Positions 8,863 to 13,404 of a stretch of 13,404 bases of DNA are shown here, piece after piece. The position numbers and the translations under genes are program-made. The notes beneath the pieces are model-generated. The model worked only from the letters and a program-made list of their open reading frames with translations, had not been told where the DNA came from and did not search any database. The first letter of the stretch is position 1. Every line of letters starts with the position of its first letter. Origin of the DNA: a virus; the UHGV virus genome UHGV-0358253; one strand, written 5' to 3'.

Positions 8863-9615
8863 ATGAACCTTGAAGCCTTACCAAAATATTACTCCCCAAA
8901 ATCTCCAAAATTGAGCGATGACGCACCGGCGACAGGCTCAGGTGGTTTAACGATTACGGATGTGATGGCTGCGCAGGGGATGGTGCAGTCGAAAGCACCG
9001 CTTGGGTTTGCCTTATTCCTGGCAAAAGTTGGTGTTCAGGATCCTCAGTTTGCGATTGAAGGTCTGCTCAATTACGCGATGGCAATGGATAACCCGACAT
9101 TGAACAAATTGAGTGAAGAAACCCGGTTACAGATCATCCCTTACCTTGTGAGTTTTGCCTTTGCTGATTATTCCAGGTCTGCGGCAAGTAAGGCTCGCTG
9201 TGAGCATTGTGCTGGTACTGGATTTCATAGTGTATTGCGCGAAGTGGTGAAACACTCCAGAAGCGGGGAATCTGTTATCAAGGAAGAGTGGGTGAAGGAA
9301 TTATGTCAGCATTGCCATGGTAAGGGAGAAGTCAGCACGGCTTGCAGAGGGTGTAAGGGTAAAGGCATTGTCCTGGATGAAAAAAGAACCCGGCTTCATG
9401 GCGCGCCTGTTTATAAGATTTGTGGGCGTTGCAATGGAAACCGGTTTAGTCGTTTACCGACCACACTGGCACGACGTCATGTCCAGAAGCTGGTACCAGA
9501 CCTGACTGATTATCAGTGGTACAAAGGATATGCAGACGTCATTGATAAACTGGTAACAAAGTGCTGGCAGGAAGAAGCATTCGCTGAAGCACAATTGAGA
9601 AAGGTGACGAGATAA
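8863..9615 (+). CDS. Q: Late-gene antiterminator Q (Q82/QuuQ-type) with four CxxCxGxG-like zinc-finger repeats
   Basis: 250-aa ORF with GGAG SD; sits between the nin-like gene and a promoter/terminator pair ahead of the lysis region; CEHCAGTG, CQHCHGKG, CRGCKGKG, CGRCNGNR repeats. Confidence 0.7.
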   Translation: MNLEALPKYYSPKSPKLSDDAPATGSGGLTITDVMAAQGMVQSKAPLGFALFLAKVGVQDPQFAIEGLLNYAMAMDNPTLNKLSEETRLQIIPYLVSFAFADYSRSAASKARCEHCAGTGFHSVLREVVKHSRSGESVIKEEWVKELCQHCHGKGEVSTACRGCKGKGIVLDEKRTRLHGAPVYKICGRCNGNRFSRLPTTLARRHVQKLVPDLTDYQWYKGYADVIDKLVTKCWQEEAFAEAQLRKVTR

Positions 9616-9646
9616 GTGATTTTCACCGAAGATGGCGACATGATGC

Positions 9647-9687
9647 TTGCATTTCTCAAAAAATATGGATAAGATTTTCCCAACGAT
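9647..9687 (+). promoter_or_regulatory. Candidate late promoter pR' with a downstream -10-like pause element
   Basis: TTGCAT (9647-9652), 17-nt spacer, TAAGAT (9670-9675), then AACGAT at 9682-9687 at roughly +1 to +6, the arrangement used for sigma70-dependent promoter-proximal pausing at lambdoid pR'. Confidence 0.4.
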
Positions 9688-9720
9688 GGGCTTTGTATGT
9701 CTACCGTTGATGAGTTCAAG

Positions 9721-9755
9721 AACCCGCCGCCGAGCGGGTTAAATTATTTTTTCTT
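9721..9755 (+). terminator. Candidate tR'-like intrinsic terminator downstream of Q
   Basis: AACCCGC-cgccga-GCGGGTT stem-loop followed by AAATTATTTTTTCTT. Confidence 0.5.
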
Positions 9756-9769
9756 ACACGGGGATATGG

Positions 9770-10300
9770 ATGTTATACCGAGATCTTTTGCCTATTTTCT
9801 CAGAAAGACCCATATTTAAAGCTCCTGAGGCTGAAAGAATACTTCGTGAGCAATATTCTATCGCCGCCCCCACTCCTGTAATTCAGGAGATTTATTATGG
9901 ATTGGCAGGTTATGACAGATTTCAGGAGCTTTATGGGGATCTTAATATTGACCAAATCGAATGGAAATTGATTGAACTTCCCACTAAAAATTTTTTAACT
10001 ATCGGGGATAATGCTACTTACCCTGATTTTTTGCATGAGGTCGTTGAAGATTTCACAACCCGTAAAGGCGATGTATTTATGGATGATGAAATAAAAGCGC
10101 ATTGGTGTAATTTTGGCACATGGTGTGAACCTCCATTTTTTATAGATCGAGCTTTGCTGAAAAGTAATACAACAGGGCTTCATTTAATGGAAGGGCATAC
10201 AAGAGTTGGAACCCTGTTAGGGGCAGTTAAGTATAACTTCGTTAAGCTTGCTAATACTCATAAAATTTATTATGCGCAAGCAAAAGAATGTATTAAATAA
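9770..10300 (+). CDS. Hypothetical 176-aa protein in a low-GC moron; function unknown
   Basis: Clean ORF with GGGGA SD 5 nt upstream; by eye about 37-40 percent GC against about 50 percent in flanking phage genes; contains YPD-x20-EIK and GHTRVG segments; followed by a strong terminator. Confidence 0.75.
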   Translation: MLYRDLLPIFSERPIFKAPEAERILREQYSIAAPTPVIQEIYYGLAGYDRFQELYGDLNIDQIEWKLIELPTKNFLTIGDNATYPDFLHEVVEDFTTRKGDVFMDDEIKAHWCNFGTWCEPPFFIDRALLKSNTTGLHLMEGHTRVGTLLGAVKYNFVKLANTHKIYYAQAKECIK

Positions 10301-10337
10301 GTTGAGTGAAATTACTGTTTTTTTTTAACAATACTTA

Positions 10338-10358
10338 CCGCGTTCTCGCGGTTTTTTT
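10338..10358 (+). terminator. Rho-independent terminator after the low-GC moron gene
   Basis: CCGCG-ttct-CGCGG stem-loop followed by T7; an additional T9 run lies at 10318-10326. Confidence 0.7.
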
Positions 10359-10481
10359 ATAAATTAAACATTGGTGCAGTACGGTAAACACGCTGGTGGT
10401 CGTGAATACTGACTTTTTATCTTGCTGGCTTTTTAGACAAGAGTTATTGGTATGTCATGTTAACCATGAAGGTAAAAAGAC

Positions 10482-10676
10482 ATGCTAAAACAGCAAGATA
10501 TGACAGAAACGGCGAAAGTTGTTTTTAATGAATTAAACGGCAAACCGGCAACAGTCGGGGAGATAGCACAAAACACATACCTTTCACGCGAACGCTGTCA
10601 GTTAATACTGACCCAGCTGGTTATGGCGGGGCTGGCAGATTACCAGTTCGGCTGTTACAGACGCCTTCAGCAATGA
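10482..10676 (+). CDS. Small (64 aa) putative winged-helix DNA-binding protein, possibly PapI/FaeA-like
   Basis: AAGG SD 9 nt upstream; GKPATVGEIAQNTYLSRERCQLILTQLVMAGLADY resembles the recognition-helix region of small winged-helix regulators; similarity is weak and from memory. Confidence 0.5.
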   Translation: MLKQQDMTETAKVVFNELNGKPATVGEIAQNTYLSRERCQLILTQLVMAGLADYQFGCYRRLQQ

Positions 10677-10825
10677 AGGGCTTTTAATTTGTGAAAATGG
10701 GCGGCTGGTGGGTGTTGGTAGCACCTGCCAGCCATTCGCTCATGCTTACTGGTCACAAGCGAACCATGGCCCACTGCTTTAGCGCAAAAGCAGAGTGAGC
10801 CTACCAGAGTTACGCTTACTGATCC

Positions 10826-11851
10826 ATGAAAAACACTGTAAAAATAAACAGTATTGATTTAATCAACGCTGATTGCCTGCATTTTATTCAGTCCCTGCCT
10901 GATGATTCCATTGACCTGATTGTTACCGATCCGCCTTACTTCAAGGTGAAACCCAACGGTTGGGACAATCAGTGGAAAGGGGACGAAGATTACCTTAAGT
11001 GGCTGGACCACTGTCTGGCCCAGTTCTGGCGGGTGTTGAAACCTGCCGGAAGCCTTTACCTGTTCTGTGGGCATCGCCTGGCATCTGATATTGAGATCAT
11101 GATGCGTGAACGTTTCAACGTGCTTAACCATATCATCTGGGCGAAGCCGTCCGGACGTTGGAATGGGTGTAATAAAGAAAGTCTGCGCGCATATTTTCCT
11201 GCCACAGAGCGCGTTCTGTTTGCTGAACATTACCGGGGGCCATATCGCGGCAAAAGTGACGGCTATGTGGCAAAAGAAAGGGAACTCAAACAGCACATAA
11301 TGGCACCGCTGATATCGTATTTCAGGGATGCTCGTGCCGAACTGGGTATAACGGCAAAACAAATTGCCGAAGCCACAGGTAAGAAAAATATGGTTTCCCA
11401 CTGGTTTGGTGCCAGTCAGTGGCAGTTGCCGAATGAGGCTGACTACCGGAAGTTACAGGCACTGTTTTCCCGTATAGCGGCAGAGAAGTTTCAGGAACAA
11501 CAACTGGAACAACCACACCACCAGTTGGTGGCATCTTATGATTCACTGAATCGCAAATATTCTGAATTGCTGGATGAGTTTAAATCTCTCCGGCGCTATT
11601 TCTCCGTATCAGTCTCCGTGCCTTATACCGATGTCTGGATGCATAAACCCGTTCAGTTCTACCCGGGTAAACATCCGTGTGAGAAACCGGCGGATATGCT
11701 CAGGCAAATAATCAATGCCAGTAGTCGACCCGGCGATCTGGTTGCTGATTTCTTTATGGGATCCGGTTCCACAATAAAAGCAGCAATGGCGCTGGGGCGT
11801 CGGGCGTTAGGTGTTGAGCTTGAGACAGAGCGGTTTAATCAGACCATCTAG
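10826..11851 (+). CDS. Beta-class (N6-adenine or N4-cytosine) DNA methyltransferase, apparently orphan
   Basis: Motif IV DLIVTDPPY near the N-terminus and motif I DFFMGSGST near the C-terminus (order IV then I defines the beta class); about 200-aa intervening region with an HTH-like segment ELGITAKQIAEATG; no SD before the ATG. Confidence 0.9.
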   Translation: MKNTVKINSIDLINADCLHFIQSLPDDSIDLIVTDPPYFKVKPNGWDNQWKGDEDYLKWLDHCLAQFWRVLKPAGSLYLFCGHRLASDIEIMMRERFNVLNHIIWAKPSGRWNGCNKESLRAYFPATERVLFAEHYRGPYRGKSDGYVAKERELKQHIMAPLISYFRDARAELGITAKQIAEATGKKNMVSHWFGASQWQLPNEADYRKLQALFSRIAAEKFQEQQLEQPHHQLVASYDSLNRKYSELLDEFKSLRRYFSVSVSVPYTDVWMHKPVQFYPGKHPCEKPADMLRQIINASSRPGDLVADFFMGSGSTIKAAMALGRRALGVELETERFNQTI

Positions 11852-11897
11852 GAAATCAGTATGTTATCAGCAAATACAATTTTGTGAATTAATTCAA

Positions 11898-11926
11898 TTA
11901 TTGGTGGGATGTCTGTGCCGTATAAT
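11898..11926 (+). promoter_or_regulatory. Candidate promoter with a perfect -10 (TATAAT) and weak -35
   Basis: TATAAT at 11921-11926; best -35 is TTATTG at 11898-11903 with 17-nt spacer; a transcript from here would end at the terminator at 12129-12168. Confidence 0.25.
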
Positions 11927-12128
11927 GATTACAGATACAGTGTATCCTGCAATGCAGCAGGGCTGATGTGGTGGGTTGTACATAGCCTGCAAAGGATTGG
12001 CTTCATTAATTCATCGTTGATACAAGCGAGTCACGGTTGACCACGCCAACGGCTCATCGGTAAAAATCCGACACCGTGTCTTCTTAACTCACTTATTGTT
12101 TCCACCCATGTTTTTGGATACCTGCTGT

Positions 12129-12168
12129 AGCTGTCAGATTAGCGCGATAATCTGACAGCTTTTTTTTT
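12129..12168 (+). terminator. Strong Rho-independent terminator
   Basis: 13-bp perfect stem AGCTGTCAGATTA / TAATCTGACAGCT, loop GCGCGA, then T8. Confidence 0.8.
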
Positions 12169-12457
12169 ACAACGAATCCTTCTGATCTGCTTTTGCGGGG
12201 CTTTTTTGTATCCGCTCCATGCCCGGCGTATAAGCGGAGGTTGGTCAGTTTTCTAAAAATTGAAATACCTCACAATTCAGCCAGTTAATGGTTGTTTGTC
12301 TGGCGAAGAGTTTGTAAATAAAAAAACGCATGGTGAATCCCCCTAAGCGGCGGGGCGAATCAGCAGTCAGTTCTGGGATAATCGCGGGTTCGTATGCTGA
12401 TGCCGGACTCACCGGGAGGCACCCGGCACCATGCATCATGGTCATCCCCTTGTATGA

Positions 12458-12483
12458 TACCCCTCTCCGGAGGGGTATTTTTT
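12458..12483 (+). terminator. Strong Rho-independent terminator
   Basis: TACCCCTC-tccg-GAGGGGTA stem-loop followed by T6; a weaker GCCCG...CGGGC hairpin preceded by A6 at 12488-12515 could terminate the opposite strand. Confidence 0.75.
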
Positions 12484-12916
12484 GGATAAAAAAGCCCGCG
12501 CTGGGAGGCACGGGCGGCAAGGAATAAAACGTGAAGAAATTTTCACAGGCGCATAATAATCCGATGTTGCCAGATTTTGCAACTGCATCATCTGGTTATT
12601 ATGTGAGCTGGAAAATCAGATTCTGTATGGACTGAAGCCATGCTGTTATTTAGGGCCAAAGAGCTGGCTTTTTCCCGCCTTCTCTCCAGTAACGATTAAT
12701 GAGAAAAGAATGAAATGCTTTTCCTGGGGAGGAGGGCAGTAGAAAAAAGAACCCGCCAGCAAAAATATGGGGGATGAACAGCTTTTGCTACTCAGGTTGC
12801 TGGCGGGTATGGTTCTTCATGAAATAAGAATGTTACGCGGTATTTTTAATGAAAATGATAATTATTGTCAATTGGTTGTGCGTATTTTTTCATACATGAC
12901 TGGTAAAGGTGATTCA

Positions 12917-12947
12917 GGCCATCAGAGTTTTGCTGATGGCCTTTTTT
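12917..12947 (+). terminator. Rho-independent terminator about 35 nt upstream of the holin start
   Basis: GGCCATCAG-agttttg-CTGATGGCC stem-loop followed by TTTTTTCTTTCC. Confidence 0.7.
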
Positions 12948-12980
12948 CTTTCCGGTAGCACAGGTCTGTTGGGGCGGGAT

Positions 12981-13196
12981 ATGTATCAGATGGAAAAAAT
13001 ATCAACAGGCATTGCCTACGGCACCTCCGCAGGCAGTGCTGGCTACTGGTTTTTACAATGGCTTGATCAGGTTAGTCCGTCTCAGTGGGCTGCGATTGGT
13101 GTACTGGGAAGTCTGGTTCTGGGCTTTCTGACTTATCTGACGAATCTGTACTTCAAAATCAGAGAAGACAGAAGAAAGGCTGCGAGAGGAGAGTAA
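12981..13196 (+). CDS. Phage holin, S21/EssQ-type class II (pinholin-like), dual-start
   Basis: 71-aa product [28 protein letters not shown]...[36 protein letters not shown]: two hydrophobic segments, charged C-terminus, two in-frame ATGs three codons apart (12981, 12990); the ORF-track N-terminal extension from 12909 crosses the terminator and is rejected. Confidence 0.85.
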
Positions 13197-13200
13197 TATA

Positions 13201-13404
13201 ATGGTCCAAAACTATGAAATGATTGTGAAAGGGATCCGCAATTTTGAGAATAAAGTTACGGTAACTTTAGCATTACAGGACAAAGAACGCTTTGACGGTG
13301 AAATTTTTGACCTGGACATCTCGCTGGACCGTGTTGAAGGTGCCGCGCTGGAGTTTTATGAGGCAGCAGCCAGAAGGAGCATCAGACAGGTCTTCCTGGA
13401 TGTT
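13201..13404 (+). CDS. Small phage protein downstream of the holin (YdfR-like position), 3'-truncated by the window edge
   Basis: AGGAGA SD 10 nt upstream of ATG 13201; open frame to the window end (MVQNYEMIVKGIRNFENKVTVTLALQDKERFDGEIFDLDISLDRVEGAALEFYEAAARRSIRQVFLDV...); the YdfR analogy rests on gene order only. Confidence 0.6.
   Translation, partial: MVQNYEMIVKGIRNFENKVTVTLALQDKERFDGEIFDLDISLDRVEGAALEFYEAAARRSIRQVFLDV

Follow-up and report, generated by a model that had tools for sequence, protein, structure and literature searches.

A lambda-Q-type late promoter cassette in virus genome UHGV-0358253, with a cargo gene probably inserted between its terminator hairpin and T-tract

The DNA that follows a phage Q antiterminator gene raises two questions: where late transcription starts, and where a polymerase that has not been modified by Q stops. 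Here both questions are addressed for nucleotides (nt) 9616-9769, on the plus strand, of a 13,404-nt stretch of UHGV virus genome UHGV-0358253, which as a whole is called the window. An original prediction, made from the sequence alone, had placed at this site a late promoter (pR') with an AACGAT pause element and, closely downstream, an intrinsic terminator resembling tR' of lambda. Our analysis indicates, with a probability of roughly 80%, that 9647-9740 is a lambdoid late-gene regulatory cassette of the lambda-Q family, in which a cargo cassette has been inserted between the terminator hairpin and its T-tract, leaving at 9721-9740 a hairpin that is probably a poor terminator. The Q gene and the promoter-proximal elements are as follows.

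8863-9615, plus strand: Q antiterminator gene of the lambda-Q family, 250 amino acids (aa), TAA stop
9647-9652, plus strand: -35 element TTGCAT, 31 nt past the Q stop, in the same register as TTGACT of lambda
9653-9669, plus strand: 17-nt promoter spacer, a candidate Q-binding element (QBE) from its conservation by Q clade
9670-9675, plus strand: -10 element TAAGAT; TAAATT of lambda lies equally far from AACGAT
9682-9690, plus strand: predicted +1 (9682) and pause element AACGAT (+1 to +6) with a GGG triplet; AACGATGGG is identical to lambda pR'
9697-9699, plus strand: putative pause site, +16 to +18, deduced from the lambda pause at +16/+17
9682-9708, plus strand: 5'-terminal RNA hairpin predicted by RNAfold, with the pause element as its 5' arm (AACG.UGGGC / GUCUA.CGUU)

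The Q protein matched Pfam family PF03589 (E 1.7e-53), which is the Q-lambda family and one of three unrelated Q families (Yin et al., PMC9388147). It aligned with lambda Q at 35% identity (BLASTP, E 4e-43) with a 48-residue gap on the lambda side, and lambda Q was also its best sequence match in the PDB (chain Q of 7UBM, E 7.9e-39; loading complexes 7UBM/7UBN). The gap reflects a 48-aa insertion (residues 121-168; 9223-9366) right after the first CxxCxGTG motif, a position that places it inside the zinc-ribbon arm. The insertion contributes two extra CxxCxGxG motifs, and its match to the DnaJ zinc-finger family PF00684 was sub-threshold. In lambda Q, the zinc-ribbon arm touches the distal QBE and sigma region 4 (PMC9388147).

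Downstream of Q, the window reads TTGCAT-17-TAAGAT-TTTCCC-AACGATGGGCTTTGTATG, where the six bases TTTCCC separate the -10 element from AACGATGGG, and lambda reads TTGACT-17-TAAATT-TGACTC-AACGATGGGTTAATTCG. The element spacings are identical in the two phages, as are all nine bases of AACGATGGG. Direct reading of the window bore out both the coordinates and the strings of the original prediction, in which TTGCAT-17-TAAGAT directly follows Q and AACGAT occupies +1 to +6. In lambda pR', wild-type AACGAT lies at +1 to +6, the adjacent GGG is discriminator-like, and Q-lambda requires a sigma70-dependent pause at +16 (Strobel and Roberts, PMC4005639). On the basis of the homology with lambda pR', +1 is assigned to 9682. 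A pause at about +16 to +18 is suggested by the same analogy, and T17-G18, together with G at +8, fits the pause consensus G-10 Y-1 G+1.

The two promoter hexamers alone do not exceed chance, and the promoter and pause hexamers might thus be accidental, the real late promoter lying elsewhere, for example nearer the holin gene. Several results make this highly improbable. The window has a single copy of the composite TTG-N20-TAnnnT-N6-AACGATGGG, 200 shuffles gave no copy, and for the shorter pattern TAnnnT-N6-AAYGATRGG with at most one mismatch 0.23 occurrences are expected by chance. The motif has no second copy in the window, and the sole plus-strand promoter-like site that a consensus scan listed in 9700-13404 (13244-13273) lies downstream of the holin gene. 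Moreover, about 100 loci have the unit at a constant distance from Q, among them lambda and others whose Q identity is as low as 35-44%. As the hexamers do not stand out by themselves, the evidence for the promoter is its conservation.

Conservation was examined in loci obtained by Q-protein scans: 17 in species representatives of GTDB (with Qs 40-97% identical; Escherichia, Shigella, Mangrovibacter, Kosakonia, Phytobacter, Atlantibacter, Scandinavium, Buttiauxella and Entomohabitans) and the 80 closest IMG/VR contigs, to which SfV, Ayreon, one Stx2c phage and lambda were added. The block of -10 and pause element was kept in place in 101 of 102 Q-homologue loci (Q identity 40-100%), L015 being the sole Q-homologue locus without the promoter/pause unit. 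The pattern TAnnnT-N6-AAYGATRGG was present exactly once, at a fixed distance past Q, in 97 of 106 loci, and five more loci carried single-base variants of the pause element, namely AAAGAT (L016 and two others), AACAAT and GACGAT; AATGAT was also found among the relatives. A2, A5 and T6 of the hexamer were constant in all variants, and A2 and T6 correspond to the two -10 positions most specifically bound by sigma region 2. In alignment A1, which comprises the promoter and leader sequences of 26 diverse relatives, the invariant columns were TTG of the -35 element, TA...T of the -10 element and AA.GAT.GG, and the T residues at +13, +15 and +17 were invariant or nearly so. The distance between -35 and -10 was fixed at 17 nt in the relatives and was 16 nt in the most distant clade. 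Together with the homology to lambda pR', this conservation in about 100 loci strongly supports the proposed architecture, that of a lambdoid Q engaging sigma70-paused polymerase.

The promoter spacer behaved differently from the pause element. The spacer pattern T.TTC..AAA...TGG was nearly invariant for Qs at 64-100% identity and wholly different in the clade at 40-44% identity and in lambda, where the pause element was nevertheless retained. Such a pattern would be expected of a Q-specific site upstream of a hexamer that is read by host sigma, which makes the spacer a candidate QBE; we take the exact placement of the QBE to be within the promoter spacer. Q of lambda binds its QBE upstream of the pause element (PMC9388147). 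A natural recombinant was also observed (L055, IMG/VR UViG_2565956633_000004, about 2008-2130), in which the Q gene and promoter of this clade are fused exactly at AACGATGGG to lambda 6S/tR' sequence. Its joint implies that all Q-specific sequence lies upstream of +9, and that the pause element is a recombination joint past which the leader is exchangeable. The Q 3' end and promoter were matched in 2538 of 5426 complete E. coli genomes, including the K-12 Qin gene ydfT/quuQ. In the literature on quuQ/ydfT, on Stx2c late promoters and in the genome-wide sigma70-pause paper, no experimental description of the late promoter of this Q clade was found.

The second question, where an unmodified polymerase stops, involves four further elements.

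9721-9740, plus strand: ancestral tR' hairpin AACCCGC-CGCCGA-GCGGGTT (G/C core 9723-9738) without its T-tract, -10.6 kcal/mol
9741 to about 10349, plus strand: inserted AT-rich cargo cassette of about 0.6 kb, delimited by the break in homology; left junction exact, right junction approximate
9770-10300, plus strand: cargo open reading frame (ORF) within the cassette, 176 aa, phrog_8867 (E 1e-96)
10337-10359, plus strand: hairpin ACCGC-GTTCTC-GCGGT (10337-10352) followed by T7, probable effective first terminator, from the terminator scan (discriminant +26.6)

A G/C-closed hairpin core with 4-9 T immediately behind it is present in 89 of the 97 loci that bear the motif. The median 3' end of the core is at +58, and unmodified transcripts should therefore be about 60-66 nt long, or about 52 nt in some genera, whereas the T-run of lambda ends at about +193. 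The original prediction of an RNA of about 70 nt, shorter than lambda 6S RNA, agrees in length with these relatives, and a short pR' transcript appears from their sequences to be the norm for this Q clade; what is doubtful is that the stop is efficient in the window itself. The hairpin CCCGC-N6-GCGGG was found in 23 distinct versions, with 98% of cells paired and 16 different loop sequences. Two stem pairs were compensated on both sides: in L041 a C-G pair has become A-T, and in L066 a C-G pair has become T-A, for which L083 shows the T-G intermediate. The hairpin of the relatives is accordingly under selection. A second stem class, CCTCGC-N4-GCGGGG, occupies the equal position in other relatives. 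The same hairpin is present in SfV, where it is annotated 'putative rho-independent terminator', in Ayreon, where it is an annotated terminator, and in Stx2c phages. In E. coli FDAARGOS_1303 (L103, 1485-1520), the hairpin AACCCGCCGCTGAGCGG with T7 and the downstream block (64-aa ORF and methylase) stand behind a Q of the PF06530 family and a cargo gene on the minus strand; the hairpin therefore moves with both modules, that of Q and the downstream one.

In the window, the T-tract is displaced. The tail after the G/C core is TTAAATTA (also given as UUAAAUUA), as compared with 4-9 T in the relatives: only UU follows the core directly, and then AAA. Counted from the full hairpin at 9721-9740, AAATTA comes next, and TTTTTT begins only at 9747 (9747-9752), six bases off the stem. 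The window hairpin is the only one of 30 (23 + 7) distinct types without a T-run. Its terminator discriminant was -25.6, as against +3.7 to +39.3 in the 89 intact relatives and +26.6, +40.9, +32.6 and +32.7 for the four other plus-strand terminators of the window, values that are trustworthy as a ranking only. The discriminant was calculated in the d'Aubenton-Carafa form, using modern energy parameters; the search took perfect stems only, so that the long imperfect tR' hairpin of lambda was unscorable and lambda was excluded from the comparison. Termination at the 9721-9740 hairpin, cut off as it is from its T-tract, is therefore probably poor, and we lean modestly towards a weak terminator. 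Of the intrinsic terminator that had been placed at 9721-9755, the hairpin is real and represents the ancestral tR', but its T-run does not adjoin the stem.

The position of the break shows where the T-tract has gone. The homology of all relatives to the window breaks at 9740, right after GCGGGTT, and is regained within the 3' arm of the hairpin at 10337-10352. From that arm onward, through the T-run and the flank ATAAATTAAACATTGGTGCAGTACGGTAAACACGC, this second hairpin aligns with the corresponding parts of the intact tR' in L047, L103 and SfV. The cassette therefore lies between the ancestral hairpin and the ancestral T-tract, flanked by GCGGGTT and GCGGTTT. Its GC content is 35-38%, compared with 46-50% in Q, and only 29 nt separate the junction from the cargo ATG at 9770. 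The cassette variant was found in 90 of the 5426 complete E. coli genomes, and an identical junction was present in three haplotypes (window/L023/L024, L045 and E. coli PS1Thumoskin9). The most diverged of these, PS1Thumoskin9 (L106, 1060-1260), keeps the GCGGGTT/AAATTA junction and carries an uncompensated C-to-A change in the 5' arm (AAACCGC with GCGGGTT), as would be expected of a hairpin freed from selection. The hairpin at 10337-10359 is probably the effective first terminator for unmodified pR' transcripts.

From the register, homology, conservation and junction structure observed here, we infer the following scheme, with its start site, pausing, loading of Q and efficiencies of termination. 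Sigma70 holoenzyme would start at about 9682 from the constitutive TTGCAT-17-TAAGAT promoter, and sigma region 2 would then re-bind AACGAT(GGG), with the hexamer at +1 to +6, on the non-template strand and keep the polymerase paused near +16 to +18. From the clade-specific spacer site to which it is bound, Q would load onto the paused complex, and the Q-modified complex would pass 12129-12160, 12456-12479, 12916-12942 and all the other terminators to reach the lysis genes, beginning with the holin gene (12981-13196). In the relatives, unmodified polymerase would halt at the hairpin and T-run and release an RNA of 60-66 nt. In the window lineage, where the 0.6-kb cargo cassette appears to have recombined exactly between hairpin and T-tract, part or most of the transcripts from 9682 would cross the 176-aa ORF when Q is absent and end at 10353-10359, at a length of about 680 nt. 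We propose only tentatively that the 176-aa gene thus stands on a constitutive, Q-independent pR' leader and is expressed in lysogens, with 10337-10359 serving as the effective tR'.

Several observations pull against this interpretation, at the promoter, at the hairpin and in the wider distribution of the cargo gene. At the promoter, the hexamers are weak in comparison with the consensus (-35 3/6 and -10 4/6, together 7/12), and the consensus promoter scan of the window did not list the pR' site. The scan returned 17 promoter-like sites where 16.5 were expected, which is chance level, and was rejected as a guide to promoters of this late class. In addition, the -35-like element of lambda (TTGACT, 1 bp upstream of the pause element) is absent; the window has TTTTCC at 9675-9680 (-7 to -2), which matches TTGACA at 3/6. 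In lambda, this element serves repositioned sigma region 4 (PMC9388147). It is an accessory feature of lambda and does not define the family. The enlarged zinc-ribbon arm of Q and the missing -35-like element at 9675-9680 may be connected.

At the hairpin, the objection is that 9721-9740, together with a lower stem and UUUUUU (9747-9752), could still terminate efficiently, so that lysogens would make a 66-72-nt RNA and the cargo ORF would be transcribed only with Q. A permissive terminator scan does list the 9721 hairpin as terminator-like, and a weak lower stem of AGUU/AAUU pairs in the minimum free energy fold could place the U-run beside a two-tier hairpin, with the hybrid past the stem all A/U. 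Partial termination at about +66 to +71 is possible. However, the lower stem gains only about 1-2 kcal/mol across a 5x5 internal loop, and an efficient stop would have to accommodate the interrupted tail of UU and AAA, a hairpin that is alone among its types in having no T-run, the strongly negative discriminant and the uncompensated stem change in the diverged copy. An efficient stop at this hairpin is thus somewhat doubtful.

The distribution of the cargo gene speaks for the efficient stop in one respect. The cargo family comprises 22 clusters, all in Enterobacterales and all annotated 'hypothetical', and the cargo gene is always the first after a Q gene of the PF03589 or PF06323 family. The Q before it is of the PF06323 family, unrelated to PF03589, in Hafnia, Klebsiella, Citrobacter and Salmonella. 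Klebsiella and Citrobacter prophages keep an intact AACCCGC-N6-GCGGG hairpin with T6 before the cargo ORF, Salmonella has a weak hairpin there, and Hafnia prophages have no terminator between Q and the cargo ORF and one after the ORF. Placement of the cargo gene in an unterminated leader is therefore found more than once but is not general for this gene. Since the cargo family and the hairpin are found behind different Qs, late-region modules share this hairpin as a recombination joint. The 176-aa cargo protein itself has an invariant EGHTRxGTLLG motif, and weak ParB/sulfiredoxin-like matches to it recur; its AlphaFold model (predicted local distance difference test score 78) gave no significant fold match.

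Expression of the cargo ORF independently of readthrough from pR' could also be provided by a promoter created at the junction, TCAAGA-18-TAAATT (9716-9745). Its TAAATT, which spans the junction, is the -10 hexamer of lambda pR', and with 7/12 matches it is no worse than pR' itself. This explanation is quite unlikely, as its -35 element scores 3/6 with a spacing of 18 nt, the site is missing from the list of the scan, it overlaps a stable hairpin and it shows no conservation outside the window lineage. Readthrough from pR' across the displaced hairpin remains the interpretation that we prefer for cargo expression.

The leader RNA, whether short or extended into the cassette, could in addition be functional in its own right as a trans-acting small RNA (sRNA), which would be compatible with the cassette insertion. 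The precedent is StxS of Stx phages, a pR'-tR' transcript of 258 nt that is processed to a 74-nt trans-acting regulatory sRNA, and antiterminated phage promoters have been proposed as a source of sRNAs (PMC7547250). The segment +1 to +27 is highly conserved and folds as the 5' hairpin, and the module occurs in about half of the complete E. coli genomes. In the 26 relatives, 95.3% of the cells of this hairpin were paired, as compared with 29-52% when the partner was slid, and lambda has an analogous 9-bp hairpin with a different 3' arm at +2 to +25 (L005, 789-812). However, 6 of the 9 pairs vary on one side only, and none shows two-sided compensation, so that the attempt to prove an RNA hairpin by covariation failed. 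Because all changes are one-sided, the 5' arm being the invariant pause element, an RNA stem and a DNA inverted repeat are indistinguishable here. The conserved 5' part coincides with DNA elements, the pause element and the pause site, that explain its conservation, and the stretch that separates the two hairpins varies more than any other part of the unit. Rfam gave no match in 9616-9769 at E <= 1, and no non-coding RNA is annotated after ydfT in MG1655. A trans-acting role is accordingly unlikely. A 40-codon ORF (9697-9819, plus strand) opens at +16 and crosses the hairpin into the start of the cargo gene in another frame. The same ATG opens just 7 codons in SfV-type relatives and is not kept in K-12-type relatives, and the ORF is probably not a gene.

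Beyond the cassette, the late region continues on the same strand to the holin gene, with the following features at its distal end.

12916-12942, plus strand: terminator before the holin gene, 10-bp stem with T6, discriminant +32.7, 39 nt upstream of the gene
12981-13196, plus strand: class II holin gene (PF04971, RefSeq annotation)

The cargo genes and the downstream terminators share one same-strand unit that reaches the holin gene, and in the matching genome lysozyme and Rz come after the holin. The original prediction had put the cargo genes and three further terminators inside the Q-dependent late transcript; the layout holds, but the strong plus-strand terminator-like sites number four (10337-10352, 12129-12160, 12456-12479 and 12916-12942). 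It had also offered the terminator before the holin as an alternative tR', which proved untenable. The only pause-element promoter of the window lies 3.2 kb away and none was found near 12916-12942, whose equivalent in SfV is annotated before S; this terminator is one of several downstream barriers in the late operon and not tR'. The better alternative, judging from the alignment, is 10337-10352, which appears to carry the ancestral T-tract.

In 9000-13404, Rfam returned only STnc100 and a sub-threshold SgrS. The STnc100 match (RF02076; 12299-12487, plus strand; 114.5 bits against a threshold of 47) has its own terminator at 12456-12479. It sits between the DNA methylase gene and the holin gene, within the late transcription unit, and overlaps an ORF of 64 aa on the minus strand (12245-12439), a hypothetical protein according to RefSeq. 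The SgrS match (12851-12947, plus strand; 24.8 bits against 37) overlaps the terminator before the holin and most likely reflects terminator-hairpin similarity only.

These results assign positions to the late promoter, the pause element and the first terminator in a Q clade carried by roughly half of the complete E. coli genomes; K-12 Qin, SfV-like phages and O157 Stx2c phages belong to it. As the clade's terminator lies only about 25-45 nt past the pause site, loading of the Q-lambda type would have to be finished over that short stretch. Late-region modules recombine at the AACGATGGG block and at the tR' hairpin, which join even different Q families. Whether a cargo gene lies before or after the effective tR' decides its expression in the lysogen, and in the toxin-carrying relatives, the Stx2c phages, the same local anatomy sets basal toxin transcription. 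If the proposed scheme is true, the insertion in the window lineage turns an always-on late promoter into a lysogenic-conversion promoter.

Among known systems, prophages with unrelated antiterminators share the general plan. The Q cassettes of phage 21 and phage 82 (PF06530 and PF06323) likewise consist of a Q gene, a promoter, a sigma-dependent pause and a terminator (PMC9388147). Their Q proteins are unrelated to that of the window, and prophages with a PF06323 Q have, directly behind that gene, a hairpin of the type seen here and a member of the cargo family. The pause elements of phages 21 and 82 lie farther downstream than +1 to +6. In lambdoid phages generally, pR' is constitutive in lysogens and is checked only by the terminator (PMC7547250). 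StxS resembles the window in this respect, arising from a constitutive late promoter that is stopped just downstream in lysogens and being a short RNA by-product of Q regulation, but it is a precedent and not a homologue of the window RNA. HnrS, a 66-nt multicopy prophage sRNA from the late regions of Sp9/10/12 of the enterohaemorrhagic E. coli strain Sakai (PMC13502914), was considered as the predicted 60-66-nt RNA of the relatives and rejected, as Sp9 has a different Q (PF06530/DUF1133) and its locus does not contain the window motif. At that locus (O157 Sakai, L004, 15391-15510), the Q gene ECs_1778 (PF06530 and DUF1133) is followed by a region of about 110 nt ending in GGAAGCCACCGGAAGGTGG and T7.

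The closest relatives are SfV, Ayreon, mEp460, O157 Stx2c phages and K-12 Qin (ydfT/quuQ), which are 90-92% identical to the window over a stretch that begins at the 3' end of Q and takes in the promoter, the pause element and the hairpin. They also have the same downstream layout of 64-aa ORF, DNA methylase, terminator and holin, and differ in that TTTTTTT stands directly after the hairpin where the window has its 0.6-kb insertion. A further comparison is with pR'-qut-tR' of lambda. The two share a homologous Q, a promoter just after Q, the same register of -35, 17 nt, -10, 6 nt and AACGATGGG, a pause element at +1 to +6 with a predicted 5' RNA hairpin on it, and a downstream hairpin of the terminator type followed by lysis genes on the same strand. 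Lambda differs in its spacer (QBE) sequence, in having TTGACT by the pause element, in a Q without the 48-aa insertion and in the position of tR', which is at +40 to +66 in this clade and at about +193 in lambda (6S RNA); in the window, moreover, the T-tract is displaced by the cargo cassette. The element was thus correctly identified as one of a known kind, a Q-lambda-type late cassette, and the textbook mechanism is unchanged. The local twist is that a cargo gene has been recombined between the tR' hairpin and the T-tract, probably exposing it to the constitutive late promoter.

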